Below are positions 15,961 to 53,473 of a stretch of 64,000 nucleotides of DNA, piece after piece (position 1 is the stretch's first letter; each line of letters begins with the position of its first letter). This DNA is from Candidatus Omnitrophota bacterium. Its GTDB lineage: Bacteria; Omnitrophota; Gorgyraeia; Zapsychrales; Zapsychraceae. The stretch is taken from positions 27,484-91,483 of the forward strand of contig DATDQB010000020.1 of NCBI GenBank assembly GCA_035292445.1. The letters are read 5' to 3'. A program made the position numbers and the translations under genes. Below the pieces are notes generated by a model. It made no database searches, had not been told where the DNA came from, and saw only the letters and a list, made by a program, of their open reading frames with translations.

Positions 15961-15967
15961 CGCTTGA

Positions 15968-21801: not shown

Positions 21802-21813
21802 CTTGTTCCTTGC

Positions 21814-22593: not shown

Positions 22594-22601
22594 CTTTAAC
22601 C

Positions 22602-23540: not shown

Positions 23541-23562
23541 CGCGTCCCCAATATTGATCAGA

Positions 23563-26588: not shown

Positions 26589-26727
26589 ACCAATCCTTCA
26601 ACACGGTCAAATTCTTGATCGTTTGCTGGACGCTGTACCTGGAATCAGGCCTTTGCCTGGCTGTCTCTTCCCACGTGCGTCCGTCTTTGCTTCCTTTGAT
26701 CTTGGTCATGCACAACCTCTTTCTTGC

Positions 26728-27723: not shown

Positions 27724-27732
27724 GGGAGATCT

Positions 27733-30832: not shown

Positions 30833-32069
30833 GCGATACCTTCTTGTTTCCGGTCACTTCAAAGACCTTCTCCCCCATGACTTCGGCCAGGTATTGTGCG
30901 ATCAACTGATTTCCTTTTTTTGTAATGTGGCCCCCATACAGATCCTCTGTATAAAAAGTCGCCAAATCCTGCTTAAGAATAAAATCGCTTAGATCAATGA
31001 CGGTCATCTCCTTGCCGATCTCTTGGTAGAATGGACGATAAGCAGATCCCCTCTTAAAATGCACAATACGCTTTAGGTCCATAAGCTGCGGTATAACGAC
31101 GATGACGGGCTGATGCCCGCGACCTTCGGCCCCGGCCTTGAAACGCATCAAAATGGATTTTAACAAAGCACAAGATTCTTTATCAGAATACATTTGATGG
31201 GCTTGATCGATATTACCCTCCATAATGATCTGAAACGGCCTGTTCTCGAGCGTCGAATTGGAACGCTTCACGGACCGCGCCAGAACCCGGACAATGAGGC
31301 TTGCGATCAGCCGGCTGTTCCTTTTAAAATTACGAAAATAACTTAGCGTGTAAGGAAAACGGAATTGCATATGCCGAAACTTTGAGGCGTAAAACCCGTC
31401 GTTTTTCCGAAGGTCTCTCAATTTCGGTTCCAGCTCTCTAAAATCCTCTTGTGTTTGCATCACGTTCGGTAAAAGCTCCAACTGTCCGTCTTTGAGCACG
31501 AACCTCGGCTTGAAAGCAAACGTGTTACCGAACTCCAGATAATGCTTCCAATACGACTGCACGCGGCAGATCGTCTCCGGGACAAAGGAGAATATAACAA
31601 TCTTCACCGAATCCGCCAGCTGCGTCCGCTCATAACGTAACAATGTTTGGTCAACCCCGTAATTTCCCACCCCGTAATTGGACACGCCGATACCTAACAG
31701 CTGCGTCAAATAGACCTGCCAAGTCTCGTCGTCATTGACCTGCCGGCAAAAATTGTAAGAATCCCCGAAGGTGGCGATTGTCTCTTCTTTATCCGCCAAC
31801 AACGGATTTGTCCTGCCGCCTTTGGCATCGATCGTGAACGTCGTACGAACGTCGCGCGCCTTTTCCGCGCCCGAGGTATGGGGCCTTCGCACCCATCCTA
31901 ACTGCCCATCGAAGCCGTGATTGAAAAACTTCTCCAACCCCTGCTTGTCCAAAGCCGGCAATTCATCTGCTTCCGTGATAAGCCATTGGAAATCCCTGTG
32001 CAAATATTTGATCAGCGCAATAAAAGCCACCTCAAGCAATATAATTCCTATTAGGATAGAGTAGATCAT
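30822..32069 (-). CDS. Membrane-anchored SGNH/GDSL-family hydrolase (candidate glycan O-acyl esterase/transferase)
   Basis: 415 aa. It has an N-terminal TM helix and a GDSL block-I TIATFGDSYNF. The size and anchor resemble AlgJ/AlgX-type proteins. Confidence 0.5.
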   Translation of the reverse strand: MIYSILIGIILLEVAFIALIKYLHRDFQWLITEADELPALDKQGLEKFFNHGFDGQLGWVRRPHTSGAEKARDVRTTFTIDAKGGRTNPLLADKEETIATFGDSYNFCRQVNDDETWQVYLTQLLGIGVSNYGVGNYGVDQTLLRYERTQLADSVKIVIFSFVPETICRVQSYWKHYLEFGNTFAFKPRFVLKDGQLELLPNVMQTQEDFRELEPKLRDLRKNDGFYASKFRHMQFRFPYTLSYFRNFKRNSRLIASLIVRVLARSVKRSNSTLENRPFQIIMEGNIDQAHQMYSDKESCALLKSILMRFKAGAEGRGHQPVIVVIPQLMDLKRIVHFKRGSAYRPFYQEIGKEMTVIDLSDFILKQDLATFYTEDLYGGHITKKGNQLIAQYLAEVMGEKVFEVTGNKKVSHAI

Positions 32070-33154
32070 CGCTCTTCTTTCGCCAAAAGATGCCTGGCGC
32101 GGCCTCCATTAACATAATCCCATCGTAAAGGGCTTCCCTTTTTAATATTCTTGATAGCCTGCTTTCCCCAGAATTTATCGGCATATTTGGGGCTCAATCC
32201 ATGGCCGGGCCTGATGGAGCGGACATTGTTCTCATCAAACTTCTCGCCCTTTTTGATGTCCCTGACCGCAAACAACGACCGCCTGAAAACACGGCTTTTC
32301 ATTTCCTCTTGGCTAATGACGTTCTTTTCCTGGCCTAACGCTTTCTCCACAAGCCGGATATGATCAACCAATGTTTTCAGCTCATGCGGATCGATGGAAA
32401 AGAAACTATCCGGTGTCTTGTGCCGCTTCGATAGAATAAAATGCTTTTCAACGAGGACCGCCCCCAGGGTAACGGCAACCAATGCCATGTCGACCCCTAA
32501 AGTGTGATCGGAAAACCCAATGGGGCACTTAAATCGTTCCTCCATCGCCGGAATAGCGCGTAAATTCATCTCCTCAGGAATTGCCGGATAATTGCTGACG
32601 CATTTTAATAGAATGATCTCTTTTGCCCCTGCTTCGCGTGCCGCCTTAACAGCCTCTTCTATTTCCTGTTCGGAAGCCATGCCGCTGGACATAATTAATG
32701 GTTTCTTGGTCTTGGCGGCATACTTGATCAATGGTATGTCGACCAATTCAAAGGAAGAAATTTTGTGCGCCGGAACATTGAGATCTTCCAACAGATCAAT
32801 GCTCGTTTTATCAAAAGCCGATGAAAAAAAGCAGATCCCTTCATCGTCACAAACCTTTTTCAGCTTCTTGAACCAATGCCACGGGGTATAGCCCTTTTTA
32901 TAAAGCTGATACAAAGTTTGCCCGCCCCATTTGGGATGTTTGACCTGAAAATATTTGTTACTGCTGTTCAATGTAATGGTATCCGGCGTATACGTCTGGA
33001 ATTTCACCGCATCGGCCCCGCAGGCCTTGGCCTCTTTGATCATGTTGACGGCACGGTCGAACTTTTGGCCATGATTGGCGGAGATCTCCGCGACAATAAA
33101 TGCCGGGCAATTGTCACCTATTTGTTTATTGCCGATACGTATTTTTGTCATCAT
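32066..33154 (-). CDS. NeuB-family nonulosonic acid synthase (sialic/pseudaminic/legionaminic acid synthase), copy 1
   Basis: 362 aa. IVAEISANHGQKFDRAVNMIKEAKACGADAVKFQTY is present, followed by a C-terminal SAF domain. Confidence 0.85.
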   Translation of the reverse strand: MMTKIRIGNKQIGDNCPAFIVAEISANHGQKFDRAVNMIKEAKACGADAVKFQTYTPDTITLNSSNKYFQVKHPKWGGQTLYQLYKKGYTPWHWFKKLKKVCDDEGICFFSSAFDKTSIDLLEDLNVPAHKISSFELVDIPLIKYAAKTKKPLIMSSGMASEQEIEEAVKAAREAGAKEIILLKCVSNYPAIPEEMNLRAIPAMEERFKCPIGFSDHTLGVDMALVAVTLGAVLVEKHFILSKRHKTPDSFFSIDPHELKTLVDHIRLVEKALGQEKNVISQEEMKSRVFRRSLFAVRDIKKGEKFDENNVRSIRPGHGLSPKYADKFWGKQAIKNIKKGSPLRWDYVNGGRARHLLAKEER

Positions 33155-34611
33155 TTATCCTTTAGATAAACAAGCGCTTTGGACCTGACATTCTTGACCG
33201 TCAAATTCTTCCGGAACTCAAATCGGGCCTTTTCAAAGGCGCGGATCGAGGCGGCATTCTTTTCCTTTATGATCGCCGTCACGGAACGGATATCGCTTCT
33301 TTGCCTTAACAAACGATCGACACTGCGCGAAATGACAGATGGGCTTAAGCTCAACCCTCTGATAGAGGGATCCAAACTGATACTAATAACAGCGTCCTTA
33401 CGCGCAGGGTCCACTTGGAATCGGATTTGCCCTTGCACGTCTTCTTGACCGTTTAAAACATAGAACATGCAATTCTTATCCTTTAACTTTCCGTCAAACC
33501 ATTTCAAATGCTCATTCCAACGAATCTTGCGGGTATTCGATGAATTGGCCCGGGCCAAAGGATCATTGGATATTTGAAATATCCTTTTAGCATCCTCATA
33601 TCGGGCTTTTCTCAACTGGAATCTACCCTTATAGTAATGGAAAAGTACATCCTGAATGATCCGCCTCGCGCCAAGGCCATCCACCAACGATTGTCCTTTA
33701 AAGGACCTTTCCCGTCGAATGGCTTCACTCTTATAGGCCAACAAGGTCTCCTTAAGTTCATCCATCAAACGGGGATGGTTCGAGCGTCCAATATAGGCGA
33801 CGAACCCCAATCGTTCATACTTCTTGATGTTCGGTAGCTGATTGTCCGCCAAGCATAGAGCTATCGTTGGGACCCCCATGCCGGCCAGTTCGTTCAACGT
33901 TTGTCCACCGGCGGAAATGCACAGATCCACCTTGGCCATGAGCCTTCTTAGATCTTTTGCATTTAAAAAAGGATAGGCCCTGATGTCCGTGGACCGGCCT
34001 GCATGAACGGGGCCGATGACATGGGATTGTAACCCGCATTCTCTAACAACACGAATGATCCTATCCATCAGATCCCTGTTCCTGGTCCCTCCTAGGCTGA
34101 TCAAAATATGAGCCAAATCTTTACGAATATTTTTCTTCTTCTTAAGGTTAAAACCATTTCTAAGCATCGCATAACGCTGGCCAATGAGATATTGCAAGCC
34201 CTTGCGATTCCTGTACCCCACGTCCCTTTTATCGCTGATCGTCGCATTAATGACCGCATGCGCATCATAGGCCAGGCGATCATAGTCATCGAAGACAACG
34301 ACGAACGGCTTTCGGTCGCTGGCATAGAGTTGGCGATAGAACGCTAGCGGCGCCTGATAGGAATCGACAAAGACGATCGTATCCTTCTTTAAATTCTTCA
34401 ACACGCTGCGAGATCGCTTCAACCAATCGATCGATTCATAGGGGCATCCCGCTTCTCTCATATATTTTCGACCATAAGCATCGGCCCTGACGAGAAATCG
34501 CACGTTCATCTTAGGCTTAAACGTTGCAAACCCCTGGAAAAGGCTTAAGCACCTGCTTAAATGGCCAAAGCCCTGTTTCTTCCCGCCTTCTGTTAATATA
34601 CGGATGTCCAT
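33151..34611 (-). CDS. Bifunctional PseG-like UDP-sugar hydrolase / PseH-like GNAT N-acetyltransferase fusion
   Basis: 486 aa. The N-terminal GFGHLSRCLSL motif is the PseG G-x-G-H-x-x-R signature, and the hydrolase domain spans about 320 aa. The C-terminal 150 aa form a GNAT fold (QIRFQV...ISISLDPSIRGLSLS...ASIRAFEKARF), resembling PseH. Confidence 0.6.
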   Translation of the reverse strand: MDIRILTEGGKKQGFGHLSRCLSLFQGFATFKPKMNVRFLVRADAYGRKYMREAGCPYESIDWLKRSRSVLKNLKKDTIVFVDSYQAPLAFYRQLYASDRKPFVVVFDDYDRLAYDAHAVINATISDKRDVGYRNRKGLQYLIGQRYAMLRNGFNLKKKKNIRKDLAHILISLGGTRNRDLMDRIIRVVRECGLQSHVIGPVHAGRSTDIRAYPFLNAKDLRRLMAKVDLCISAGGQTLNELAGMGVPTIALCLADNQLPNIKKYERLGFVAYIGRSNHPRLMDELKETLLAYKSEAIRRERSFKGQSLVDGLGARRIIQDVLFHYYKGRFQLRKARYEDAKRIFQISNDPLARANSSNTRKIRWNEHLKWFDGKLKDKNCMFYVLNGQEDVQGQIRFQVDPARKDAVISISLDPSIRGLSLSPSVISRSVDRLLRQRSDIRSVTAIIKEKNAASIRAFEKARFEFRKNLTVKNVRSKALVYLKDK

Positions 34612-34613
34612 CT

Positions 34614-35393
34614 CTATTTCCTTACAGGAATCCCCTGCTTTTCCATATCTTCTTTACATGTCATCGGTGTAATGCTCGTAAAATGAAAGATGCTGGCAGC
34701 GGATACGGCCGAGGCCCCTTGTTGGATCGCGGCACTGCAATCACTGGGGCTCGCCGCTCCTCCCGCCACAATTAAAGGAATATCCCTGACGATGGAGGCC
34801 GCATACCGGATCAGATCCAGATCGTACCCGCTCATTTTTCCGTCCAGATCCACGTTATTGAGCAATATCTCCCCGACTTTACAATATTCCATCAATATTT
34901 TAAGGACCTCTTCAAAGGTATAGCGGATCTCACGCCCCGCATGGGAATACAACTTATACTGGCCATCCTCCCCTTTTCGAACATCGATGGATGCGACAAT
35001 GCATTGGCTTCCAAAGACCTCGACCGCCTGTTTGACGACATCAATGTCGTCAAAAATAATCGTGTTCAGCGATACTTTATCCGCTCCCGCCTCCAACGCG
35101 TTGGCGATGTCTTGGCAGGACCTTAAACCACCCCCTACAGTTAACGGCATAAAACAATGGTCCGCAACAGTTGAAACGGTATGCAGGTCAATGCCCCGAC
35201 CCTTTTTGGAGGCGTCGATATCCAGTAAGATCAACTCATCAATGTTACGGTTGTTATACACCCTGGCCACCGTTATCGGATTGCCCAGATTGCGACGGAC
35301 ATCGAACTGGATCGTTTTAACGACGGAATAACCGTCCAACAGGACAAGCGGTATGACGCGGTGGCGCAACATGATCAATATTTCCCCTTGCAA
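34614..35393 (-). CDS. HisF-like cyclase subunit (imidazole-glycerol-phosphate-synthase-like; acetamidino-sugar amidotransferase component), copy 1
   Basis: 259 aa. RVIPLVLLDGYSVVKTIQF...DELILLDIDAS...PLTVGGGLRS is present. Confidence 0.8.
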   Translation of the reverse strand: MQGEILIMLRHRVIPLVLLDGYSVVKTIQFDVRRNLGNPITVARVYNNRNIDELILLDIDASKKGRGIDLHTVSTVADHCFMPLTVGGGLRSCQDIANALEAGADKVSLNTIIFDDIDVVKQAVEVFGSQCIVASIDVRKGEDGQYKLYSHAGREIRYTFEEVLKILMEYCKVGEILLNNVDLDGKMSGYDLDLIRYAASIVRDIPLIVAGGAASPSDCSAAIQQGASAVSAASIFHFTSITPMTCKEDMEKQGIPVRK

Positions 35394-35986
35394 AAATTTT
35401 CAAGTAACTTAAGCCCGGCCTTTTGGCTTTTCTCCGGATGGAATTGAAAACCTAAAATGTTCTCCTTTTGGACGCCGGCAATAAAATCCTTCCCGTAATG
35501 GCAGGTGGCCGTTTGGACCTTTTCATCGGGAACGAATTCGTAACTGTGCACGAAATAAAAACACGGGGCGGCCGGCATGTTATCAAATACAGGAAAATTG
35601 CCAAAACTCACATCATTCCATCCTATGTGGGGCAGCTTGACGCCGTTAAGGCTATGGCGCAAATGGGACACCCTTCCTTTAATAAGGTCCAACCCTTCGC
35701 TTGGCCCGCCTTCTTCCCCTTGGCTGGCGAGCAGTTGCATCCCCAAACAAATGCCCAAAATGGGTGTCTTATCTTCGATAACTCTTTTTCTGATGGCCTC
35801 ACGCAATCCCGTCGATTTTAAACGGCTTGAACCTTCGGCAAAACTTCCGACACCAGGCAAGATCATCTTTTCACAATTAATGACGTCTTCAAGACGATCC
35901 GACACTTTATGTTCCACGTTCAAGAACTTGAGCGCACGGCTGACGCTGGCAATATTGCTGATCTTTAGATCGATGACCGTGATCAT
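35375..35986 (-). CDS. HisH-like glutamine amidotransferase subunit
   Basis: 203 aa with a GATase1 fold (ILGICLGMQLL). It forms a pair with the HisF-like gene. Confidence 0.8.
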   Translation of the reverse strand: MITVIDLKISNIASVSRALKFLNVEHKVSDRLEDVINCEKMILPGVGSFAEGSSRLKSTGLREAIRKRVIEDKTPILGICLGMQLLASQGEEGGPSEGLDLIKGRVSHLRHSLNGVKLPHIGWNDVSFGNFPVFDNMPAAPCFYFVHSYEFVPDEKVQTATCHYGKDFIAGVQKENILGFQFHPEKSQKAGLKLLENFCKGKY

Positions 35987-37179
35987 TTATTAGGCTCCTT
36001 GAGCGAAACGGCCCTTACCATATCAAGCGATTCATCTTCAGAAATATCATAGCCATAATCGGTCTTCGTCAACCGGCCGTTCTCCTTAACTAAATTTCCC
36101 TTCGCATCGCAAACAAAAATCTTTTTGTTGGTGAACCGATCGAGCGTGGCCCAAAATTCTTCTTCCGTGATATTCAAATACTTGATGAAATCCAGAATAT
36201 ACCTCATGGGCAATTCGCCGTCATATTGGCGGGCAAGTCTTAAAGCCTTATCGCGCGATATATTGCCCCGGCGAATCTCCAAGCTGAGCTGGTCCGTTGC
36301 CCGGGAATACCCGTATTTTAGGAACTTCATGTAATCATGCAGGCCGCTGGCCCATTTACAGTCAAGGTTCTCGTAATCAAAATACGCGTTCTCGACGCGG
36401 CCGTAAGGGCAGGCCTTCCATCCCAATGATTTCATCATTTCCGCGTTCTTGGCGCCATTCCATGGCAGATAGTAACCAAGGAACAATCCCGTAACGCCGA
36501 CCTCTTTTAATTCCTTGTCGCTGGGATATTCAAAAGTAATCAAATCCTTGCGGTCGAACCCCTCTTCATAAAGATCCGATATCCGGTACCCGTACATCTG
36601 GAATTGTTCAAGCCAGTTGCGGTCCAAATAATTATTCTCCCGTTTGGCCGCCGGGCCGCCGTACTCGAACTGGGAATTCTCTCCCCAAATGACCAGCGGC
36701 ACTTTGTATTGGACCGCGACACGAATGGGTGCCGTAAAAATGCCGATATGCTCCGGCCAGCAACTATCACCTAGATCAAAAAATCCTTTGCGGACCATTT
36801 CCCGGTATGCTTTGCGGTTGGCCGATACGAACAGAACATCGAAACCAAGCTCCCGAAGGTACAATAAATTTTCTTTGCCATGCTCGGTCATTTCGCAAGG
36901 CACATGATTGACGCACAATGGGTTCATGCCGTATTTGTATTTCATCGTATAGGCCTGGAAACAGCTGTCCTTGCCACCGCTCACGGGAATGATGCAGTCC
37001 CACCAAGTCCCGTTCTTGTTACGGTAGCGCTCCAGGACCTCGATAAATTCCTTTTCGCGGCCGGCCCAATCAATTTCCTTTTTACGAAGGGCCGAACGGC
37101 AAGCGTCGCAAATTCCATGCTCGTCGAAGACCTGCTCGGGCCGCGTGTCCGGCATTATGCAGTTATTGCAGTATTTCAT
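35983..37179 (-). CDS. N-acetyl sugar amidotransferase (PP-loop ATP pyrophosphatase, WbuX/LPS-biosynthesis family), copy 1
   Basis: 398 aa. It has an N-terminal zinc ribbon (CNNC...CDAC) followed by the PP-loop IIPVSGGKDS. Confidence 0.8.
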   Translation of the reverse strand: MKYCNNCIMPDTRPEQVFDEHGICDACRSALRKKEIDWAGREKEFIEVLERYRNKNGTWWDCIIPVSGGKDSCFQAYTMKYKYGMNPLCVNHVPCEMTEHGKENLLYLRELGFDVLFVSANRKAYREMVRKGFFDLGDSCWPEHIGIFTAPIRVAVQYKVPLVIWGENSQFEYGGPAAKRENNYLDRNWLEQFQMYGYRISDLYEEGFDRKDLITFEYPSDKELKEVGVTGLFLGYYLPWNGAKNAEMMKSLGWKACPYGRVENAYFDYENLDCKWASGLHDYMKFLKYGYSRATDQLSLEIRRGNISRDKALRLARQYDGELPMRYILDFIKYLNITEEEFWATLDRFTNKKIFVCDAKGNLVKENGRLTKTDYGYDISEDESLDMVRAVSLKEPNK

Positions 37180-37915
37180 TGTATTTGCGATCCGTTCTTT
37201 GCTTTGTCAGCTTTTCCAAATAAAAATTAGCCAAAAGGATATCATCCGGCGTGTCTATTTCCAAAGTATAGATCTTCTCTTTCTGGACCACCGGTATAAT
37301 TTCCTTGCATAAATAAACATGGGCCTTTCTGATCCCGATCGTTTCATATAGATTTTTTGCCCGTACCACGATGACGGAACCGTCCAATAAATAATGGTTC
37401 GAGAACTCCTGCCTTCGGATGGCGTACACATCGCTTTCAAGCGGTTGCAACCGGTTCTTTTTATTCGCCACCTTCATTAATTCCGGGCGTTGTTCCACCT
37501 CATAGCAAGTGACGCATGAATCGGCATCATCCGCTTCAACGAGTCGCTGAACAACCTCGTCAATAAGGCCCTGCGGCCGGAAAGGAACATTGGCCTGCAG
37601 CCAAACAACGATATCGGCGTTGTAATTCTGTGTTTTTTTCAAATGTTCCACCGCATGAAGCAGCGCTTCTTCAATGGGGGAATCGTCTTTCGCGTACTGG
37701 GCCGGCCGGTCGATCACCTCAACTTTGTAACGATGCAGGACATTTTCCTTAATGAGCGGGCAATCCGTGGAAATAACGACCTTATCGAGCAGTTTCGCTT
37801 CCAACGCCGATTCGATGGTGTAGCCGATAAGCGGCTTCCCGTTCAGGTCCATGATATTCTTGTTTTTGATCCCTTTACTCCCCCCGCGGGCGGGAATTAT
37901 ACCTACGATCTTCAT
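37163..37915 (-). CDS. Acylneuraminate (nonulosonate) cytidylyltransferase, CMP-sugar synthetase, copy 1
   Basis: The signature MKIVGIIPARGGSKGIKNKNI is present. The likely start is the internal Met at 37915. Confidence 0.85.
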   Translation of the reverse strand: MKIVGIIPARGGSKGIKNKNIMDLNGKPLIGYTIESALEAKLLDKVVISTDCPLIKENVLHRYKVEVIDRPAQYAKDDSPIEEALLHAVEHLKKTQNYNADIVVWLQANVPFRPQGLIDEVVQRLVEADDADSCVTCYEVEQRPELMKVANKKNRLQPLESDVYAIRRQEFSNHYLLDGSVIVVRAKNLYETIGIRKAHVYLCKEIIPVVQKEKIYTLEIDTPDDILLANFYLEKLTKQRTDRKYNEILQ

Positions 37916-37997
37916 ATTGTCTCCCGTCATTCTTTTTTTCTATTCTGACGAGGCTCGCCCGCCAAAATTAATTTATTTTGGCGAGGCGGCCTATTAT

Positions 37998-39743: not shown

Positions 39744-39753
39744 AAAACCCTCC

Positions 39754-40416: not shown

Positions 40417-40418
40417 GG

Positions 40419-41642: not shown

Positions 41643-41655
41643 ACTCCAGAGTCCT

Positions 41656-43089: not shown

Positions 43090-43098
43090 ATGTTCCCC

Positions 43099-44781: not shown

Positions 44782-44826
44782 TGAATCATTCCTCTCTAAA
44801 TCATAACAGCCAAGTTAGAATGAAAA

Positions 44827-44961
44827 TTCCAAGAAACAAGATACAATAACCAAACAATCATCAATAAACAAATTCCAAATTCAAAACCGACCCAAGTTTG
44901 GTCTATTTGGTTATTGTTATTTGGGTATTGTTTGTTTCTTGTACCTTGGTTATTGGTTATT
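44827..44961. repeat. Imperfect palindromic intergenic repeat element, copy A (about 135 nt)
   Basis: Left arm ttccaagaaacaagatacaataaccaaacaat...ccaaattcaaaaccgacc. Right arm ggtctatttggttattg...tttgtttcttgtaccttgg. The arms are mutually reverse-complementary (caagaaacaa against ttgtttcttg). It shares words (aacaagataca, ccaaattcaaaa, tcttgtaccttgg) with the element at 53499-53635. Confidence 0.55.
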
Positions 44962-44982
44962 TCACGCATAGTATTGTTTGAC

Positions 44983-45867: not shown

Positions 45868-47057
45868 GAGAACCTTAGATCATAAAATTGTTTTTTTAAT
45901 AAATGTTGTGCGATCTTAGTGCTTTTGATCTTATCCTTGATGCGCCTGCTTACTTTTCCGTCGCGATACCGTTCATAAGGATTGGGCTTGCGGCTGATGC
46001 GCCTTGCGAACGGCTTCGATAATCCCTTTTTGATACCTGCGAGTATCCCGGATTTCGTGCCTTGGACATCGATCACATTAGTGCCGCGCACGCGCCCCTT
46101 TTGACGGTCCCCGATATTGACCACCGGAATCCCGAACGATGCCGCCTCGATGATCCCGCTCGATGAATTTCCGACCATGATATCGCAATGCTGCAGGCAG
46201 CTCATATAACGCAACTGCCCCAAACTATCGAATAATCTGTTATTTCGTCCATTTTGCAGGCAAAACTTTTTAATTGTCTCATTGATCGACCGTCCGCCCA
46301 TATCAGCATTTGCCTTTGTAAAGATCGCACGCATGTTCGTCTGTTTAAGCGCGGAACAGATGCCTTTGATCTGGGCGGCCGGCGATTTGCCGTTCAGCGT
46401 CTCGGGATGGAACGTCACCAAAGCCGTCGGCCTGCTCAGATCCATTCGAAGCTCACGGGCCAATTCCCGTTTGTTCAATAATTTCTGCTTATGGACCACA
46501 TCCAACCCCGGCGCCCCGAAATTGAAAACCGATTCCGGTCGCTCTCCCATTTGAATGACGCGCTTTCGGTAATCCTCTGTAGAAACGAAATGAAGTGTTG
46601 CCATCTTGGTTATGGAATGGCGGATCCCTTCGTCAACAACCCCTTGCGTTGATTCTCCCCCATGAATATGCGCAATGGGGATCCGCGCCATATATGCGGC
46701 GATGGCCGAAGACAGGATCTCGAAGCGATCCCCTAAAAGAACGACCCAGTCAGGTTTTAACCGAAAGAACGCTTTGGCAAACAACCGGCATCCCAACCCT
46801 ATAGACTCCGTTACTCCCAAAGAAGTATCATCAAAACGCAACACATTGACTTTTTCATCGATATCAAACCCGTCTTTCAGGATAGTCTTATAGGTCATTC
46901 CGTGCTCTTTTGATAGATGCATCCCGGATACAACAAGCTGAAGCTTCAATGCCTTGTCCTTCTTGACTTCCTTTAAGAACTCATAGAGAAGGCCATAATC
47001 AGCCCTTGAGCCGGTGACCACACAGATCTTTTTACGTTTTAAGCGAGTTGTTCCCAT
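45864..47057 (-). CDS. UDP-N-acetylglucosamine 2-epimerase, hydrolysing type (NeuC/LegG family)
   Basis: 397 aa. The NeuC N-terminal signature is ICVVTGSRADYGLLYEFLKEV...QLVVSGMHL. Confidence 0.85.
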   Translation of the reverse strand: MGTTRLKRKKICVVTGSRADYGLLYEFLKEVKKDKALKLQLVVSGMHLSKEHGMTYKTILKDGFDIDEKVNVLRFDDTSLGVTESIGLGCRLFAKAFFRLKPDWVVLLGDRFEILSSAIAAYMARIPIAHIHGGESTQGVVDEGIRHSITKMATLHFVSTEDYRKRVIQMGERPESVFNFGAPGLDVVHKQKLLNKRELARELRMDLSRPTALVTFHPETLNGKSPAAQIKGICSALKQTNMRAIFTKANADMGGRSINETIKKFCLQNGRNNRLFDSLGQLRYMSCLQHCDIMVGNSSSGIIEAASFGIPVVNIGDRQKGRVRGTNVIDVQGTKSGILAGIKKGLSKPFARRISRKPNPYERYRDGKVSRRIKDKIKSTKIAQHLLKKQFYDLRFS

Positions 47058-48136
47058 TTGATAACGGAGTCCTCCGGGATCCTTCTTTGTACTATTCTGC
47101 CGACGACACGATTGATATCCTTAGGAGCGATGCCTGTGCCCGGTCTTTTCACCACAATATCCCGGTCTGTGATCATCTGTCCTTTTTTCAGCCCATGTAC
47201 CGCGACCAGGCTTTTGCGGGCGATATTCCTATTCTTCATTTCACATGCTGCCGCAGATTTAATGCCGTTTCCCAAACTTAACGTCACATGGCGGATCATA
47301 CGAACCATTTTTTTGAATTCATCCGGCTCCATGGACGCCTTGTGATCTGGTCCCCTCATAACGCGGTCCAACGTGATATGTTTCTCGATGACGCGGGCAC
47401 CCAAAGCGACCGCGGCCACCGCCACTTCAACTCCCAGCGTATGGTCTGAGTATCCTACGGGCAGCTTAAATTGCTTTTCCAAGCTCAACATGGCTTTCAA
47501 GTTCACATCCTTGTACGGGGCCGGATATTCGCTGACACAATGCAGCAAAATGATCTTTGTATTTCCCGCTTTCCTGATGATCTGGACCGCTTCTTGTACT
47601 TCATCCATATTGGACATCCCCGTTGAGAGGATCATTTCCTTCTTTTTCTTGGCGATATATTCTAAGAGCAGTAAATGGGTCAGATCGCCCGAGGAGATCT
47701 TATAGACCTGCACTTTTAAACGCTCCAACAGATCAACGCTTTCAAAATCGAAAGGTGTCGACAAAAAAAGGATCTTCCTCTTTTTGCAATGGTCCTTTAA
47801 TTCTTTAAAACCCTCGAAAGGCAATTCCAATTTTCTAATCAGATCATACTGATCGCGGATATCCGCACCTACATTCCTTCTTTGATAATCCGCCAATTTT
47901 GTTCTTCTCGATAACAGATTCTGTGCCTTGAACGTTTGAAACTTTATACCGTCCGCCCCCGCATTTTTTGCAGCGTCAATAAGCTGTTTGGCAATCTTCA
48001 TATTTCCGTTATGATTGACGCCTGCTTCGGCAATAATAAAAACGTGATTACTGGATAATAGACGCGATGTCACTAACAGCTCCTTTTCGGCGGGCCGGTG
48101 TCCCCCAATATGTGCCCGCTTCTTTGCAATCATCAA
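47039..48136 (-). CDS. NeuB-family nonulosonic acid synthase, copy 2
   Basis: About 365 aa. VFIIAEAGVNHNGNMKIAKQLIDAAKNAGADGIKFQTF is present. The track start is a TTG codon, and the true start is probably further in, to limit overlap with the upstream acetyltransferase. Confidence 0.85.
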   Translation of the reverse strand: MMIAKKRAHIGGHRPAEKELLVTSRLLSSNHVFIIAEAGVNHNGNMKIAKQLIDAAKNAGADGIKFQTFKAQNLLSRRTKLADYQRRNVGADIRDQYDLIRKLELPFEGFKELKDHCKKRKILFLSTPFDFESVDLLERLKVQVYKISSGDLTHLLLLEYIAKKKKEMILSTGMSNMDEVQEAVQIIRKAGNTKIILLHCVSEYPAPYKDVNLKAMLSLEKQFKLPVGYSDHTLGVEVAVAAVALGARVIEKHITLDRVMRGPDHKASMEPDEFKKMVRMIRHVTLSLGNGIKSAAACEMKNRNIARKSLVAVHGLKKGQMITDRDIVVKRPGTGIAPKDINRVVGRIVQRRIPEDSVIKWEQLA

Positions 48137-48716
48137 CCACCGTAGCCCCCGCTCCTATAAGACATCCTGGCGCGATCCTTTTGCCGACGATGACCGTACT
48201 GCCGGGGCCTATCAGAGACCCTTGCCCTATAAATACCCCTCCGCATAACGTCACGCCGGGCGCAACATGAACATGGTCTTCGATAACGCAATCGTGATCG
48301 ACCGATGATGTTGTATTAATAATGGCATTGTTGCCTATGCGACTGCCCGGGCCTATGATAACGCCTGCCGCGATAAATACGCCGCGGCCTAACTGCGCAT
48401 TACCGGATACGACCGCGCTCGGATGGATCACGTTAGGAAAACCAAAACCGATTCGCTGCACATCCTGGAAAAGGCTTTGGCGCGTTTTGTTATCCACCAC
48501 AGACCCAACGCAAATAAAAGCGTACCGATAGCCTTGGTCGAATAATGCCTGTAAGTCCTCATCACGGCCTAGAACAGGGACCCCGTCAACTGACTCTCCT
48601 TTGGTGAATAAAGGATCGGTAATGCCTGCGATCTCATATTGCCCGCTACTTTTTATCGCGTCGATAACAACACGGCAATGACCTCCCCCTCCTATTAATA
48701 AGACTTTGTCTTTCAT
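48048..48716 (-). CDS. NeuD/PglD-family hexapeptide-repeat sugar N/O-acetyltransferase
   Basis: 222 aa. It has an N-terminal Rossmann-like KVLLIGGGGHCRVVIDAI and C-terminal left-handed beta-helix hexapeptide repeats (IGPGSRIGNNAIINTTS...). Confidence 0.8.
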   Translation of the reverse strand: MKDKVLLIGGGGHCRVVIDAIKSSGQYEIAGITDPLFTKGESVDGVPVLGRDEDLQALFDQGYRYAFICVGSVVDNKTRQSLFQDVQRIGFGFPNVIHPSAVVSGNAQLGRGVFIAAGVIIGPGSRIGNNAIINTTSSVDHDCVIEDHVHVAPGVTLCGGVFIGQGSLIGPGSTVIVGKRIAPGCLIGAGATVVDDCKEAGTYWGTPARRKGAVSDIASIIQ

Positions 48717-49816
48717 GTACTGACCTTGGCCTTCTTTAAGATCTCACACACATATTCAATATCTTCATTTGTATTCAACGTTGAACTGGGCAAACATAGG
48801 CCGCGTTCATAGATCTCTTGGGCAACAGCATATTCCGCCTTGGCAAAACGCTGGTACGGCGGGAATGACGTCACCGGCATGAATATTCTTCGTGATTGGA
48901 TCCCCGCCAGTTCTAACTGCTTTTGGGTCTCTTGGACATCGGTCTCAGCATCAAAGAGAGCGCACGTCAACCAAAATGAAGGTTGGGTTTGAGGGTAAGC
49001 TTCTTGGAACACGATCGAACCCAAAGAAGAAAGGCGCCGACGATAGATATCATTAAACGCCTTTTTCTGCTGAAGGAATTGTTCAAAACTCTCCATTTGG
49101 GCGAGCCCTAACGCGGCCTGGATATTCGTCATGCGATAATTAAAACCTATTTCCGAATAATAATGGTCCCCTTCCAGATCCCGCGCTTGATTGACCAGGC
49201 ATCTGATGTGCCGGCTTCGCTTCTCCTGGGCGCTCACGACCATGCCTCCGCTTGCGGTCGTCATCGTTTTATTGCCGTTAAAGCTGAAACATCCGAAATC
49301 CCCGAACGTTCCCACATGGGCTCCCTTATAGGTCGCGCCTAGCGCTTCCGTCGCGTCCTCAACGACAAAAAGGTCATTTTCCTTCGCAATGTCCATGATC
49401 TCATCCATCGCGCAGGGATTGCCGTAAAGATGCACCGGAATGATGGCCTTTGTTCTTTCGGTGATGTTCTTACGGATCTCTTTAGGATCGATATTCCATG
49501 TCTTTGGGTCGACATCCACAAAAACAGGTGTGGCGCCGCAATACATAACGGGGTTGACCGTCGCAATGAACGTTAACGCGGGTACGATCACTTCATCGCC
49601 GGGCCCGATGCCAAGCTCGTGTAAAGATATGTGCAGCGCCGCCGTGCCGCTTTGCGTGGCTACGCCATAAGGCGAGCCTAAACGATGGGCGAGTGTGTCC
49701 TCAAATGTCTTTACAAATGTTCCCACGGAAGACACGTACCCGCTGTCAATGGCCTCATTGACATATTTTTTTTCTGTTGCCCCGACACGGGGCGCGTCTA
49801 AATATATTTTTTTCAT
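48713..49816 (-). CDS. DegT-family PLP-dependent sugar aminotransferase (LegC/PglE-like)
   Basis: 367 aa. The catalytic Lys is in FSFNGNKTMTTASGG. Confidence 0.85.
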   Translation of the reverse strand: MKKIYLDAPRVGATEKKYVNEAIDSGYVSSVGTFVKTFEDTLAHRLGSPYGVATQSGTAALHISLHELGIGPGDEVIVPALTFIATVNPVMYCGATPVFVDVDPKTWNIDPKEIRKNITERTKAIIPVHLYGNPCAMDEIMDIAKENDLFVVEDATEALGATYKGAHVGTFGDFGCFSFNGNKTMTTASGGMVVSAQEKRSRHIRCLVNQARDLEGDHYYSEIGFNYRMTNIQAALGLAQMESFEQFLQQKKAFNDIYRRRLSSLGSIVFQEAYPQTQPSFWLTCALFDAETDVQETQKQLELAGIQSRRIFMPVTSFPPYQRFAKAEYAVAQEIYERGLCLPSSTLNTNEDIEYVCEILKKAKVST

Positions 49817-49834
49817 TGGGTCGGCCTATTGCTT

Positions 49835-50908
49835 TTATACACGGTCGAGTTCCTCAACACTTCTTCGGTATTCTTCCCATTGCCCGACATCGATCCAGGA
49901 CTTCTCGCTGATCGGGAAAACAGACACTTTGCCGCCGGATTTTCTTACCCTTTCGATCAGATCCGTCATATGAAACACTTTATTGCGAGGGATGTAGGTA
50001 AGGGCCTTTTGGCTCAGGACATACATCCCGGTGCTGACCAAATAATCAAAAGAAGGCTTTTCCTGTAACTTGCTCAGCTCTCCCCCGTCATTGATCTCAC
50101 AGATCCCGTAAGGGACGACAAAGTGCCGCATGGAACCCACCAGCGTGATATCATTCCCGTTTTCCTGGTGGAACTTGACTAGTTCGCTGTAATCGCAATC
50201 GATGATAATGTCGCAATTCGTGACAAGGACGTCGCTATGCACCGTATTCAAGAGTTTTGTCAGGCACCCAGCTGTTCCCAGCGGTTTTCTTTCAATGAGA
50301 TATTCGATCTGATACTTGGGCTCTAATTCTTCGAAATAGGCCTTGATGATCTTCGATTTGTAGTTCAACGAGATGTAAAATTTTTTCACGCCGAATTCGC
50401 GTAACTTACCGATGATTATCTCGATGATCGGCTTTCCCTTAATGGGGATGAGCGGCTTAGGCAAAATTTCTGTGAACGGCGCCAGCCGCGTCCCGCTGCC
50501 GCCCGCCATGACCACGACCGGGACATTCAATTTCCGTTGATGGCGTTTCTTTGCCCCGTTAAAGACCGCATCCCACACCAGCACATCGACGATATTTCTA
50601 TTGGCGTCAATGACAGGATAGCAGTCTATTTTCTCTTTAAGCATCGCCTTCTTGACGTCTTCCAAATCATAATTCTCGCCAAATACGCGCGGTTTATTGT
50701 TATAGATCTCCTTGACCCCGCTTGAGACTTTACCGTTGGAGAGCACCCACCGGCGCACATCCCCATCCGTTACCGTGCCCAGTAAACGCTGCTTCTCATC
50801 GACCACGAATGCGATGCGCTTTGAATTATTATCCATGACGCGCATGGCTTCTTTGATGCTCGTTAGTTCCGTAATGAGAAATTTTTCAAGACTCTTTGAC
50901 ATATCCAT
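49835..50908 (-). CDS. CBS-pair domain fused to sugar-1-phosphate nucleotidyltransferase (PtmE-like)
   Basis: 357 aa. An N-terminal CBS pair is followed by VVVMAGGSGTRLAPFTEILPKPLIPIKGKPII. This is the same architecture as the GlcNAc-1-P guanylyltransferase of the C. jejuni legionaminic acid pathway. Confidence 0.7.
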   Translation of the reverse strand: MDMSKSLEKFLITELTSIKEAMRVMDNNSKRIAFVVDEKQRLLGTVTDGDVRRWVLSNGKVSSGVKEIYNNKPRVFGENYDLEDVKKAMLKEKIDCYPVIDANRNIVDVLVWDAVFNGAKKRHQRKLNVPVVVMAGGSGTRLAPFTEILPKPLIPIKGKPIIEIIIGKLREFGVKKFYISLNYKSKIIKAYFEELEPKYQIEYLIERKPLGTAGCLTKLLNTVHSDVLVTNCDIIIDCDYSELVKFHQENGNDITLVGSMRHFVVPYGICEINDGGELSKLQEKPSFDYLVSTGMYVLSQKALTYIPRNKVFHMTDLIERVRKSGGKVSVFPISEKSWIDVGQWEEYRRSVEELDRV

Positions 50909-50909
50909 T

Positions 50910-52766
50910 TTAAACTCCTATCAATTCGCCGCTTGCCGCATATAAATGCTGGTGCAGCCTCTGTTGCGCCTGGCCGTCGCAATAACGGTCGATATATTTT
51001 TTTACATACGCATCCTGGTATTCCTTGAATTCCTCTTCACTGCATTCATGAAGCCAATAGTGGGCGGCTTGCTTGAGCTGGTCATATCCTCTCACGCAAA
51101 ACTTTGGCATCTTGAATACGTCGAACACGGCCTGGTCAAACCTGTCTGATGTGACCTGACAGACCGCTCTTACGCCGCCAACGAGCGCTTCCTGGGTGGC
51201 GCTCGAATTAAAACCGCCGATCACCAGATCAAATATTCCCATAAAATCAAAACTCGCATAATGGGGCGCTTTTTCATTCGCAAAAATGACCCGCTCATGG
51301 CTGATGAGCTTCTTGAATTCAGCGTTCAACTCCTTGCTCTGCTCTATCGCATCCTGGCTTCTTGTCTTGAATATGAAAAAATACTGTTCGTGCTCTTGGA
51401 TGAAACGGTATGCATCGCGATAGCTCGCAATACCTTCCTCCAAATTAAAAAACCCGGCCCTTCCTATCGCCGTATCAAAAAACCCTATCAATTTTCTATC
51501 GAGCGGGACGCCGAATTCCCTTTTCAGCCGATCCTTACGTGCAGGATCATGCTTAGTCTCATAAATGATATCGGAGGGGTACGTGCCTGTATCAACATAA
51601 TTCTCGATGCAGTTCCTTGATCTTGAAAAATTATTGAGCGAAATAAAGTTTGAAAAGATGGTGCCGTAGACCGTATAACTGTAATACAAGTCAATGGGCA
51701 AACTCATATCTTCCCTGTAAACATAATCAAAACTCGCCGATTTGTAGACAAACACGGTTTGAGAACCATGCCTTTCCTGTATCAAGGTGCGCGAGACGCT
51801 CCCCGGGTCCTGAACAGCGATGAATTTCTCAACCCTGTACTTCTCGAAAAACATTCCCCATTCGATGAAATCCTTGATGGTCTTCAGATAAACCCTTAAC
51901 ACACCGAGCTTAGGCTTTTGAACCGACCGGAAAAGTGTTTGTAGGTGCTTGATCCCGGGAAGTATATTCTTTCGATAGACTTCCTGACTGAAATTTCTCG
52001 TCATTTCCTTGAAATAACATTGGTCGAACCCGTTCCCCGAAAGCCTCTCCAGAACCGGCGCCGACATCTTTCTGTCCATGACATAAAGCGTGTCCTTTTG
52101 ATCAACGCCCGTTTCAGGATGGATAAACTCAAGCTTGTTGATGTTCTTTTTCAGATCGATCCCGCTATCGAACATGAGTGCTGCATTCTTGTATTCTTTT
52201 ACTGCATATTTGGTTTCTTTGCCCTTCATGGTAAATTGCAAAATGGTTGGATAGAATTTTATCCCCATTCGGTAAACGAAGCTGGTTTTCAGTTCCTGCT
52301 GATACATCGCGTTAAGGTACCATGCGGGTATCGTAAAGCAATCCGGCAAGAAGCCTTTCTTTTCGGCCAAGATCTTGTAGATCGAATAATAAAATGGCTT
52401 CGGTATGAAATGTATCTTCTCTTTAATGTTGTGTTTCTTGACAAATTCGACGGCGAACGCAAAAGAGATCATAAGATCGGCCAACTGGGCAACGATCTCC
52501 TTTTGCATAAAGTTCTTCGCCCGAGGATCGGCAAAGGCGCGTATCAGGGCTTCTTCCTGTTCTTGCGTCACATAGTCCCGGTAAAACCAATCCATGGCTT
52601 TGGCCGCTTGAGAGCGCACAACATAGCGCTGGGTCAGATCAAATAGATCGCATTCAAGCAAGGTCGCATTGCGGCAATCCCCCTCTGCAACATAAAGGGA
52701 ACTATAGCCCTTGCATCTTGAAGGCTTATATTGAGCCGCGTGTTCTAATAAACAGACTTTTGACAT
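50910..52766 (-). CDS. Large hypothetical protein with a GT-B-like C-terminal region; paralog of 23563-25530 (candidate nonulosonate or other group transferase)
   Basis: 618 aa. The C-terminal LVIGGFNSSATQEALVGGV pattern and the N-terminal KEKIHFIPKPFYYS block are shared with the 655-aa ORF. Confidence 0.4.
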   Translation of the reverse strand: MSKVCLLEHAAQYKPSRCKGYSSLYVAEGDCRNATLLECDLFDLTQRYVVRSQAAKAMDWFYRDYVTQEQEEALIRAFADPRAKNFMQKEIVAQLADLMISFAFAVEFVKKHNIKEKIHFIPKPFYYSIYKILAEKKGFLPDCFTIPAWYLNAMYQQELKTSFVYRMGIKFYPTILQFTMKGKETKYAVKEYKNAALMFDSGIDLKKNINKLEFIHPETGVDQKDTLYVMDRKMSAPVLERLSGNGFDQCYFKEMTRNFSQEVYRKNILPGIKHLQTLFRSVQKPKLGVLRVYLKTIKDFIEWGMFFEKYRVEKFIAVQDPGSVSRTLIQERHGSQTVFVYKSASFDYVYREDMSLPIDLYYSYTVYGTIFSNFISLNNFSRSRNCIENYVDTGTYPSDIIYETKHDPARKDRLKREFGVPLDRKLIGFFDTAIGRAGFFNLEEGIASYRDAYRFIQEHEQYFFIFKTRSQDAIEQSKELNAEFKKLISHERVIFANEKAPHYASFDFMGIFDLVIGGFNSSATQEALVGGVRAVCQVTSDRFDQAVFDVFKMPKFCVRGYDQLKQAAHYWLHECSEEEFKEYQDAYVKKYIDRYCDGQAQQRLHQHLYAASGELIGV

Positions 52767-53473
52767 TTCTTCTCTTCCAGGTATTGCAGGGCGATCGCCA
52801 GATCGCCGCTCGTGTCAATATCAACGGATGACTTTTCATCCATGATAAAAGGCAATATATGCTTGTTGTGGTCCTGTAAATGGCACATGATCTCTGACGA
52901 GCCTAAGTAAATGGCCCCGTTAGGCAAATAATATGTATCTAAACCTTGGCGTTGCCGTTTCGTCAGGGCTTCATCAAAACAGAATTCAATATACCCGGCA
53001 TCATTCGTTCTCATCAGCCAGGCCGTCTTCTGAGGGGCTCGCGTGACAGAGATCAGATGATCTTTTTCTGTTTTTTTGTGCCGAAAATAATGCTCGATCG
53101 CCTGATCGATCTCTTTAGCTGACCTTAACGGCGACGTTGGCTGAAGAAGGACAATATAATCATATTGGCAATGCTCGTTCTCCTTGAGCCAGTTGACACA
53201 ATGCTCAATGGCGTGCTCGATCAATGATTCATCCTGGGCGAGTTGCGCCGGCCTTAAGAACGGAACGTCCGCACCGCCCTGACGAGCAATAGCGGCAATG
53301 GCTTCACTGTCCGTCGAAACAATGGTCCGGTCAATGTATTGGGAACCCTTGGCCGCCTCGATCGTCCAGCGGATCAACGATTTGCCACCAAGATCGGCAA
53401 GGTTCTTGTTCTTTAAACCCTTGGACCCGGCTCTTGCCCCAATGAACGCCAATATATTCTTCTTATTGAACAT
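52745..53473 (-). CDS. Acylneuraminate (nonulosonate) cytidylyltransferase, CMP-sugar synthetase, copy 2
   Basis: 242 aa. ILAFIGARAGSKGLKNKN...LLQPTSPLRS is present. Confidence 0.8.
   Translation of the reverse strand: MFNKKNILAFIGARAGSKGLKNKNLADLGGKSLIRWTIEAAKGSQYIDRTIVSTDSEAIAAIARQGGADVPFLRPAQLAQDESLIEHAIEHCVNWLKENEHCQYDYIVLLQPTSPLRSAKEIDQAIEHYFRHKKTEKDHLISVTRAPQKTAWLMRTNDAGYIEFCFDEALTKRQRQGLDTYYLPNGAIYLGSSEIMCHLQDHNKHILPFIMDEKSSVDIDTSGDLAIALQYLEEKKCQKSVY

Follow-up and report, generated by a model that had tools for sequence, protein, structure and literature searches.

Two predicted nonulosonate cassettes, legionaminic-type and pseudaminic-like, with a single HisH gene in a surface-glycan island of Candidatus Omnitrophota

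Results

Gene content and organization of the locus

The 64,000-nucleotide stretch of DNA analysed here (the window) comes from a Candidatus Omnitrophota bacterium (GenBank assembly GCA_035292445.1, contig DATDQB010000020.1, positions 27,484 to 91,483) and contains, at 32066-53473, the genes of two nonulosonic acid cassettes. Both cassettes are old and independently widespread, and they lie head-to-tail in one co-directional array. The first appears to be of the legionaminic type and has lost its HisH gene. The second is pseudaminic-like, is devoid of a PseB gene and encodes the only HisH of the window, which most likely serves the HisF-like barrels of both cassettes. All 20 genes of the region are located on the minus strand, are closely packed with frequent overlaps and form part of one long minus-strand array. 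In the direction of transcription, the first half reads cytidylyltransferase 1, a 618-amino-acid protein, a PtmE-like protein, LegC, NeuD, NeuB, NeuC, WbuZ1, a gap of 201 bp and WbuX1. The second half continues with a cupin, an extended short-chain dehydrogenase/reductase (SDR) joined to a CBS pair (CBS-SDR), a PseC-family aminotransferase, TylF, a B12-binding radical SAM protein, cytidylyltransferase 2, WbuX2, HisH, WbuZ2, a PseG-like/GNAT fusion and PseI. Cassette 1 (branch 1) was defined as 43540-53473 together with a LegB gene at 6997-7998, and cassette 2 (branch 2) as 32066-43539.

Families were assigned by NCBIfam and Pfam profile searches with curated cutoffs. The E-values of the named-family matches in the region range from about 1e-24 to 1e-158, which excludes chance as their source. 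The paralogous pairs of the two cassettes are 31-40% identical (NeuB/PseI 40%, WbuZ1/WbuZ2 39%, LegC/PseC 33%, WbuX1/WbuX2 31%, the two cytidylyltransferases 31%). The duplicated machinery therefore consists of two long-separated sets that were brought together, and not of products of a local or recent duplication.

A sequence-only reading of the window had proposed two parallel nonulosonate branches on the basis of its gene inventory. The profile searches recovered two NeuB-family synthases and two CTP_transf_3 cytidylyltransferases, the hydrolysing NeuC, the PseG-GNAT fusion, the NeuD/PglB acetyltransferase, the CBS plus nucleotidyltransferase protein of PtmE architecture, two WbuX amidotransferases, two HisF-like proteins and one HisH; tblastn with this HisH detected no second copy in the 64 kb. 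Three DegT aminotransferases had been counted in the region; two lie inside it (48713-49816 and 40419-41642) but the third lies outside, at 14833-16011. Both CBS-domain enzymes were found, although the one taken for a dehydratase is not a dehydratase by motif (see below). The two synthases fall into different curated families and each scores below the cutoff of the other, which upholds the division into two distinct branches, and a separate cytidylyltransferase and a separate pair of WbuX and HisF-like proteins belong to each branch.

The legionaminic-type cassette

The NeuB-type synthase of cassette 1 (47039-48136), in the predicted LegI role, scored 458 bits on the NeuB_NnaB model TIGR03569 (cutoff 400) and 333 bits on the PseI model, under its cutoff of 340. 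Its true start is probably internal, since the family model begins at residue 32. The hydrolysing nucleoside diphosphate (NDP)-sugar 2-epimerase of NeuC/LegG type (45864-47057; TIGR03568, 459 bits, cutoff 236) and the NeuD/PglB-family N-acetyltransferase in the putative LegH role (48048-48716; TIGR03570, 225.6 bits, cutoff 160.8) were assigned well above their cutoffs. The aminotransferase at 48713-49816 matched the LegC family TIGR04181 with 412.5 bits (cutoff 420), by a wide margin its best family. The gene at 49835-50908 shows the PtmE architecture, a CBS domain (PF00571) combined with a sugar-1-phosphate nucleotidyltransferase (PF00483), and is conserved in related cassettes. Cytidylyltransferase 1 (52745-53473; PF02348, 84.7 bits), a predicted cytidine monophosphate (CMP)-nonulosonate synthetase of NeuA/LegF type, has the CMP-N-acetylneuraminate synthetase 6ifd as its best solved relative (135 bits) and reached 132 bits on the PseF model, under the cutoff of 206. 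The LegB-type 4,6-dehydratase (6997-7998, likewise on the minus strand; TIGR04180, 475.5 bits, cutoff 475) is encoded about 40 kb away from the rest of the branch.

Related loci were collected with an alignment of WbuX1 relatives, which was run against a single genome of each species. The 80 loci obtained (L005-L084) span Planctomycetota, Acidobacteriota, Chloroflexota, Bacteroidota, Nitrospirota, Desulfobacterota, candidate phyla and others. When searched by tblastn with the window proteins, they showed LegB, LegC, NeuD, NeuB, NeuC, the PtmE-like protein and a cytidylyltransferase around WbuX1 almost everywhere. Homologues of cytidylyltransferase 1 (28-45% identity) are found in the legionaminic-type cassettes of most of these loci, and LegB homologues (48-60% identity) sit inside the cassette in most of them. 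Judged by its partner genes, branch 1 belongs to a legionaminic-type cassette that is very widespread and has an acetamidino module built in. The same partners recur in loci of many phyla, and the legionaminic-type branch of the sequence-only reading is thus strongly supported. The window differs from this environmental cassette in the deletion of HisH and in the remote position of LegB; the HisH-less arrangement WbuZ1-WbuX1 was otherwise seen only in L021.

The 618-amino-acid protein encoded between cytidylyltransferase 1 and the PtmE-like gene (50910-52766) is a candidate nonulosonate transferase or polymerase. Neither Pfam nor NCBIfam gave a match for it. A word-indexed search returned no homologue, and the sole relative visible is a 631-amino-acid protein of L085 labelled PF27878 PFTS_polysacc (24% identity over residues 2-600, E 7e-53). 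A single-sequence AlphaFold model of the protein was unusable, with a predicted local distance difference test score (pLDDT) of 36.

Loss of HisH and the acetamidino machinery

Each cassette encodes a set of predicted acetamidino-forming proteins. WbuX1 (43540-44781; TIGR03573, 357 bits, cutoff 203), a PP-loop N-acetyl-sugar amidotransferase, is 65-76% identical to orthologues across many phyla (65-73% for the copies in the 80 loci) and keeps every invariant column. WbuZ1 (44983-45867), the HisF-like barrel of the legionaminic-type set, scored 274 bits on the WbuZ model (cutoff 300) and 208 bits on PF00977, and it is 57-71% identical to the copies in the 80 loci. WbuX2 (35983-37179; TIGR03573, 363 bits, cutoff 203) has an orthologue of 69% identity in the syntenic locus L086. 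WbuZ2 (34614-35393) reached 252 bits on the WbuZ model (cutoff 300) and 225 bits on AglZ/HisF2. Set 2 has its own HisH (35375-35986; TIGR01855, 210 bits, cutoff 105), the only glutaminase subunit in the window, and set 1 has none.

This absence, which the sequence-only reading had pointed out, proved to be a real departure from the norm. Enough upstream DNA was available in 74 of the related loci, and HisH lies just upstream of WbuX in 72 of them. The order WbuZ1-HisH-WbuX1 is contiguous in 65 loci, five have HisH-WbuX1 with the barrel elsewhere, and in two HisH is parted from WbuX1 by an insertion. The two exceptions are L021 from Acidobacteria, with WbuZ1-WbuX1 and no HisH as in the window, and L030, where WbuX1 stands alone. 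An apparently disrupted HisH in L173, called as a gene of 87 amino acids, turned out to be full-length by tblastn.

In the window, the orthologous HisH position is occupied by an AT-rich palindromic element of 201 bp with 31% G+C (44782-44982). It folds into a long imperfect hairpin (-48.8 kcal/mol, z = -2.8) that none of 200 shuffled sequences matched, and partial copies of the palindrome arms are found between genes elsewhere in this genome (53616-53638 of the window; 1291-1325 and 1913-1956 of L091). The element resembles a small repeated palindromic element. A hidden Markov model (HMM) built from 70 orthologous HisH proteins found no HisH relic in the gap (best score -0.3 bits). A degraded HisH hidden in the gap or in a C-terminal extension of WbuZ1 was also considered and rejected, since both tblastn and this HMM gave nothing there; the length of WbuZ1, about 290 amino acids, is normal for its family. 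The absence of HisH from cassette 1 is a secondary loss, because orthologous cassettes keep HisH at this position and the window has a repeat-like palindrome without a relic in its place.

The replacement of HisH by a repeat-like palindrome might also mean that WbuZ1 and WbuX1 are dead leftovers, so that only the pseudaminic-like sugar would be amidinated and branch 1 would give a plain di-N-acetyl sugar. We consider this highly improbable: both frames are intact, the invariant columns of WbuX1 are kept, and WbuZ1 deviates at 3 of 124 columns with at least 90% conservation among 73 orthologues, whose own median is 2 (range 0-8). Moreover, the same sequence was recovered in several independent assemblies.

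Residue numbers follow the Thermotoga maritima HisF and HisH sequences, checked against known residue numbers. The ammonia-gate and HisH-docking residues R5, E46, D98, K99 and E167 are kept in both WbuZ1 and WbuZ2. The HisH of the window has the catalytic residues C80, H183 and E185 and the docking residues W123, Y144 and K186, and equivalents of W123, Y138 and K181 are present both in this protein and in the 70 HisH proteins that normally partner WbuZ1. Unequal subunit numbers are also found elsewhere, as 7 of the 80 loci have more WbuX than HisH genes and L011 carries two WbuX, two WbuZ and one HisH. We favour the sharing of one HisH because WbuZ1/WbuX1 are undecayed, the HisH residues are standard, unequal subunit numbers are not rare and Campylobacter jejuni provides a precedent (see Discussion). 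On these sequence features, the cassette-2 HisH most likely serves both barrels.

The alternative is that WbuX1/WbuZ1 operate without any glutaminase and use free ammonia since the loss of HisH, with nothing being shared. HisF-type barrels accept ammonium in vitro, as is established for imidazole glycerol phosphate synthase, and L021, where WbuZ1-WbuX1 likewise lack HisH and no other HisH gene occurs within 13 kb, keeps this alternative alive. On the other hand, the docking residue Asp98 and the ammonia-gate residues of WbuZ1 are unchanged, a compatible HisH is encoded 8 kb downstream in the same array, and the retention of HisH in 72 of the 74 related cassettes indicates that glutamine-derived ammonia normally matters. 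We therefore consider the use of free ammonia alone to be unlikely, though by no means negligible.

It was also considered that one of the WbuX/WbuZ sets acts on another N-acetyl sugar of the glycan, in the manner of FucNAm or ManNAc3NAmA formation by WbuXYZ or WbpG. The WbuX family TIGR03573 was indeed defined on hexosamine-derived acetamidino sugars, and other amino-sugar routes are present in the island, which encodes the third DegT aminotransferase at 14833-16011 and a fourth just past the window. However, WbuZ1-HisH-WbuX1 is embedded in legionaminic-type cassettes in nearly all of the 80 loci, and WbuX2-HisH-WbuZ2 directly precedes PseG/GNAT-PseI in the window and, in the same order, in L086 and L175, which makes a hexosamine target improbable. 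It is solely from this gene adjacency that we infer an acetamidino group on each of the two sugars.

The pseudaminic-like cassette

The synthase of cassette 2 (32066-33154) belongs to the PseI family (TIGR03586, 457 bits, cutoff 340) and scored 323 bits on the NeuB model, under the cutoff of 400. The aminotransferase at 40419-41642 passed the PseC model TIGR03588 with 526 bits (cutoff 423); among solved structures it is closer to ArnB (266 bits) than to Helicobacter pylori PseC (213 bits). The PseG-like GT-B domain encoded at 33151-34611 is fused to a GNAT domain (PF13302) in the putative PseH role, and the protein scored 104 bits on the PseG and 38 bits on the PseH model; no solved PseG was found by sequence from this fusion. 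Similar fusions of 489-515 amino acids occur in L086, L087, L088, L174 and L175. Cytidylyltransferase 2 (37163-37930; PF02348, 95 bits) is a divergent predicted CMP-nonulosonate synthetase with 100 bits on the PseF model (cutoff 206). In five modules (L085-L088 and L175) a CTP_transf_3 gene follows the aminotransferase directly or past one tailoring gene. PseH, PseG and PseF are still the best-matching families and, judged by these scores, the three roles may be filled. That either cytidylyltransferase is a phosphoramidate enzyme of the Cj1416 type was rejected, since the separate NTP_transf_3 enzyme at 21814-22593 fits that role and both CTP_transf_3 genes have conserved positions in their cassettes.

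Two predicted tailoring genes follow the aminotransferase, a TylF-type O-methyltransferase (39754-40416; PF05711, 72 bits), which recurs in L086, L087, L088 and L173, and a B12-binding radical SAM protein, probably a methyltransferase (37998-39743; PF02310, PF04055), which has an orthologue of 69% identity at the same position in L085.

PseB, the inverting UDP-GlcNAc 4,6-dehydratase of the Polysacc_synt_2 family, was not found in the window, where the best score was 72 bits against a cutoff of 408, nor within 10 kb of either end. The pseudaminic-type branch of the sequence-only reading holds in so far as PseC and PseI pass their cutoffs, but the branch has no PseB, the PseG and PseH halves score below their cutoffs, and an SDR and a cupin stand in place of PseB. 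On this gene content, branch 2 is not a canonical pseudaminic pathway.

The cupin, CBS-SDR and aminotransferase trio

The cupin (43099-43539; PF00908, 40 bits, cutoff 27) is RmlC-like and a predicted keto-sugar epimerase, with the GDP-4-keto-heptose 3-epimerase 8dak as its best, weak solved relative (27 bits). The CBS-SDR (41656-43089) is a predicted NAD-dependent C4 oxidoreductase with the motif YTSSCSVYG and residues Y287 and K291; at the position of this motif, the LegB and RmlB-like proteins of the window read STSEVYG. In the CBS-SDR family (n=120), S260, S261, S263, Y287 and K291 are invariant, C262 occurs in 115 of the 120 members and an acidic residue in none. The protein thus lacks the acidic pair or Glu next to the catalytic Ser/Thr (TDE, TSE or SDK motif) of 4,6-dehydratases. 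Its best solved relative is 6vo6 (140 bits) and dehydratases rank lower. We take 6vo6 to be Cj1427, a link that a literature search could not establish for the 6VO6 entry, and the closer solved relatives are presumably C4 epimerases. Motif and relatives accordingly place the CBS-SDR, by prediction, with the SDRs of C4-oxidoreductase/epimerase type rather than with the 4,6-dehydratases.

The cupin gene lies immediately upstream of the CBS-SDR gene and a DegT gene is adjacent in all eight other contexts, which lie on long contigs of other organisms. Each of the eight has a CTP_transf_3 gene, seven have a NeuB/SAF synthase within 10 kb, five the PseG-like/GNAT fusion and four TylF. L088 and L173 combine the cupin/CBS-SDR module with a complete legionaminic-type cassette, and in L176 a PtmE-like CBS-nucleotidyltransferase gene directly precedes the cupin. 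The tight pairing of the trio suggests that the CBS-SDR makes the keto substrate of the aminotransferase.

The possibility must be weighed that branch 2 is an ordinary pseudaminic pathway whose PseB is encoded elsewhere, or which starts from the LegB keto-sugar with inversion of C5 by the cupin, the CBS-SDR having a side job such as C4 epimerisation of a precursor. This would agree with the PseC and PseI matches above curated equivalog cutoffs and with the three 4,6-dehydratase-type SDRs of the window (6997-7998, 15968-16999 and 11889-13046), and in principle the PseB product could arise from the LegB product by the action of a cupin. It is less easily reconciled with the contiguity of the trio in all eight other contexts, none of which has an evident PseB-type gene within 10 kb, and with the tendency of SDR-only relatives with the same motif to adjoin PseC-like aminotransferases as well. 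We regard an ordinary pathway as possible but doubtful.

Four of the CBS-SDR modules (L087, L088, L174 and L176) lie next to sulfotransferase genes, and three of these also next to pyruvate-kinase/ATP-sulfurylase fusions, a hint at sulfation of the sugar or its glycan in several lineages. The CBS-SDR alignment was also used to scan metagenomes, with generic Rossmann-type patterns; this returned mostly SDR-only sisters, so the CBS-fused sample was not enlarged. The sister family (L094-L136) has no CBS pair, is 40-48% identical to the SDR domain and is often encoded beside a PseC-like aminotransferase without a NeuB gene. Such an arrangement suggests that the pairing of an oxidising with an aminating enzyme is a general way to 4-amino sugars.

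Island context and neighbouring genes

The window is part of a surface-glycan island of more than 80 kb. Its low end encodes an initiating phosphoglycosyl transferase and Wzy-like proteins, after which come pgk, tpi and secG, and past the high end there are more sugar-tailoring genes. An ABC exporter, several glycosyltransferases and a DUF115/Maf-like protein are also encoded. Given this gene content, the sugars are most likely destined for a surface polysaccharide or a protein glycan. Promoters and terminators were predicted no more often than in shuffled sequence, and Rfam gave zero matches in the window.

The PseI stop is overlapped by 4 bp by the gene of a 415-amino-acid protein (30822-32069) with an N-terminal membrane helix and an SGNH/GDSL fold (AlphaFold pLDDT 95). 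G-D-S 102-104 and His381 are invariant in its large unnamed family of 4100 cluster representatives, and Foldseek matches include the peptidoglycan O-acetyltransferase PatB and GDSL esterases. According to this model, the protein may modify the glycan as an O-acyl transferase or esterase.

Directly downstream of PseI, the genes at 21271-30832 resemble the phosphoramidate-donor pathway of C. jejuni. They encode a PPDK-like protein of 806 amino acids at 28412-30832 (PRK05849, 859 bits), a GATase similar to gamma-glutamyl-CDP-amidate hydrolase at 27733-28419 and, beyond two sulfotransferase-fold genes (26728-27723 and 25515-26588), an NTP_transf_3 enzyme at 21814-22593 and an APS-kinase-like protein at 21271-21801. 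We take this set to correspond to Cj1415-Cj1418. A PPDK-like gene also follows the PseI-type synthase in L085, where the GATase is next, and in L086 past a sulfotransferase gene, L086 ending inside the PPDK-like gene. Phosphoramidation or sulfation of the nonulosonate, or of its glycan, is possible.

At 60668-63736 and just past the high end (L091 8817-11960), a FkbH-domain protein, a carrier of 76 amino acids, a GNAT-like protein of 370 amino acids and a MaoC/SDR fusion are encoded. This group suggests a glyceroyl-type acyl donor for amino-sugar N-acylation, as in N-glyceroyl nonulosonates. Three B12-binding radical SAM proteins and one radical SAM/SPASM protein (53661-55253, 37998-39743, 19191-21143 and 59542-60657) are scattered among the glycan genes; such a density of radical enzymes is unusual for a sugar island and probably serves C-methylation.

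Discussion

A locus with two nonulosonate pathways that both have an acetamidino option, and with a single HisH, is already known from C. jejuni. Its flagellin glycosylation locus makes both a pseudaminic- and a legionaminic-type sugar, acetamidino derivatives of which have been reported, and it has a GDP-sugar route with a CBS-containing PtmE and, like the window, two WbuX-family amidotransferases, a single HisH and a DUF115/Maf-like gene nearby (PMC12102941, PMC13130089, PMC7371886). The protein at 49835-50908 of the window matches PtmE in domain architecture. PseA-HisH-HisF (Cj1316c-Cj1314c) stand there alongside a second paralogue, PtmG/Cj1324 (PMC12102941). In contrast to C. jejuni, the window has two HisF-like barrels instead of one, no PseB, and fused and divergent PseG/PseH, and its setting is not flagellar but a polysaccharide island that encodes Wzy-like proteins, an ABC exporter and an initiating transferase. 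Similarly, branch 2 shares with the canonical PseB-C-H-G-I-F pathway of H. pylori and C. jejuni the PseC and PseI proteins that pass their models, a PseG-like protein, a GNAT and a cytidylyltransferase, but differs from it in the missing PseB, in PseG, PseH and PseF scores below the cutoffs and in the added, conserved TylF, B12-binding radical SAM and acetamidino genes.

The combination of a PP-loop amidotransferase, a HisH-like glutaminase and a HisF-like barrel is also that of WbuX/WbuY/WbuZ (Escherichia coli O145, Pseudomonas aeruginosa O12) and WbpG/HisH2/HisF2 (P. aeruginosa O5). These systems act on hexosamine derivatives and are present as one set per cluster, whereas the window has two diverged sets in nonulosonate cassettes, one of them without a glutaminase. 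As to the CBS-SDR and cupin, the nearest parallel is probably the capsular heptose pathway of C. jejuni, where the GDP-heptose C4-dehydrogenase Cj1427 (PMC10680097) is combined with cupin 3- and 3,5-epimerases. Judged by sequence, both systems join an extended SDR without dehydratase residues to an RmlC-like cupin for the 4-keto product. C4 dehydrogenases of the Cj1427 type release this product in stable form and have their bound NADH recycled by 2-oxoglutarate; the CBS-SDR is linked to them by its similarity to 6vo6. The SDR of the window differs from Cj1427 in having an N-terminal CBS pair, in being followed by an aminotransferase and not a C4-reductase, and in belonging to a nonulosonate cassette.

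Taken together, we propose that cassette 1 would produce a CMP-activated legionaminic-type sugar from an NDP-N-acetylglucosamine precursor, one N-acetyl group of which would be converted to an acetamidino group by WbuX1/WbuZ1. In the C. jejuni-type pathway by the GDP route, the product is a 5,7-diamino-3,5,7,9-tetradeoxy-D-glycero-D-galacto-nonulosonate. The HisH once encoded between WbuZ1 and WbuX1 was lost, and the cassette-2 HisH would now most likely supply ammonia to both HisF-like barrels. In branch 2, the SDR would oxidise C4 of an NDP-N-acetylhexosamine, the cupin would epimerise the keto intermediate and the PseC-like aminotransferase would aminate C4, these three steps replacing PseB. 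This order of SDR, cupin and PseC-like aminotransferase is the most economical reading of the trio. To the whole, i.e. two joined old cassettes, the legionaminic-type one with a lost HisH and the pseudaminic-like one without PseB, and one HisH for both barrels, we assign a probability of roughly 60%.

Several points weigh against this proposal. The LegC-family aminotransferase falls 7.5 bits short of its cutoff, no curated PtmE- or LegF-specific model gave a match, both cytidylyltransferases score under curated cutoffs, and the PseG and PseH halves of the fusion fail theirs (154 and 93 bits, respectively). The docking residues that the HisH proteins have in common make cross-pairing with WbuZ1 possible but are no demonstration of it, and the HisH-less locus L021, which lacks a further set within 13 kb, suggests that a HisH encoded in the cluster may be dispensable. 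The searches for PseB and a second HisH covered the window and 10 kb on each side, and either gene could lie elsewhere in the genome. Finally, the products of both branches are predictions, and so are the acetamido group that would be converted, the sharing of HisH and the SDR/cupin reactions.

A more far-reaching idea is that the trio represents a widespread PseB- and dehydratase-free route to 5,7-diamino nonulosonates in which C4 is oxidised and the 6-hydroxyl kept, so that the product would be an undescribed pseudaminic-like sugar retaining the 9-hydroxyl or having another new configuration. We offer it tentatively, as less probable than not. If true, the products of the O-methyl, sulfo or phosphoramidate tailoring genes found repeatedly near these modules could act on this 9-hydroxyl. 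In the literature searched, neither the cupin/CBS-SDR module nor nonulosonates of Omnitrophota are described, and no natural 5,7-diamino-3,5,7-trideoxy nonulosonate is reported.

Nonulosonic acids decide how phages, predators and immune systems see bacterial surfaces, and the prediction of their structures from genomes depends on the recognition of complete pathways. The legionaminic-type cassette with its acetamidino triad is among the most conserved glycan modules across uncultured phyla. The window shows that the glutaminase subunit can go while the barrel and the amidotransferase stay constrained, which is a natural test of the modularity of HisH:HisF-type systems. These findings do not overturn known biology. 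The parts are familiar, and the second route is an uncharacterised variant whose cupin/CBS-SDR entry is not described in the searched literature. A large family of "pseudaminic" clusters without PseB starts with this uncharacterised CBS-SDR/cupin pair, so the assignment of pseudaminic acid from PseC and PseI alone may mis-predict the sugar, and the CBS-SDR/cupin entry is a concrete target for enzymology.

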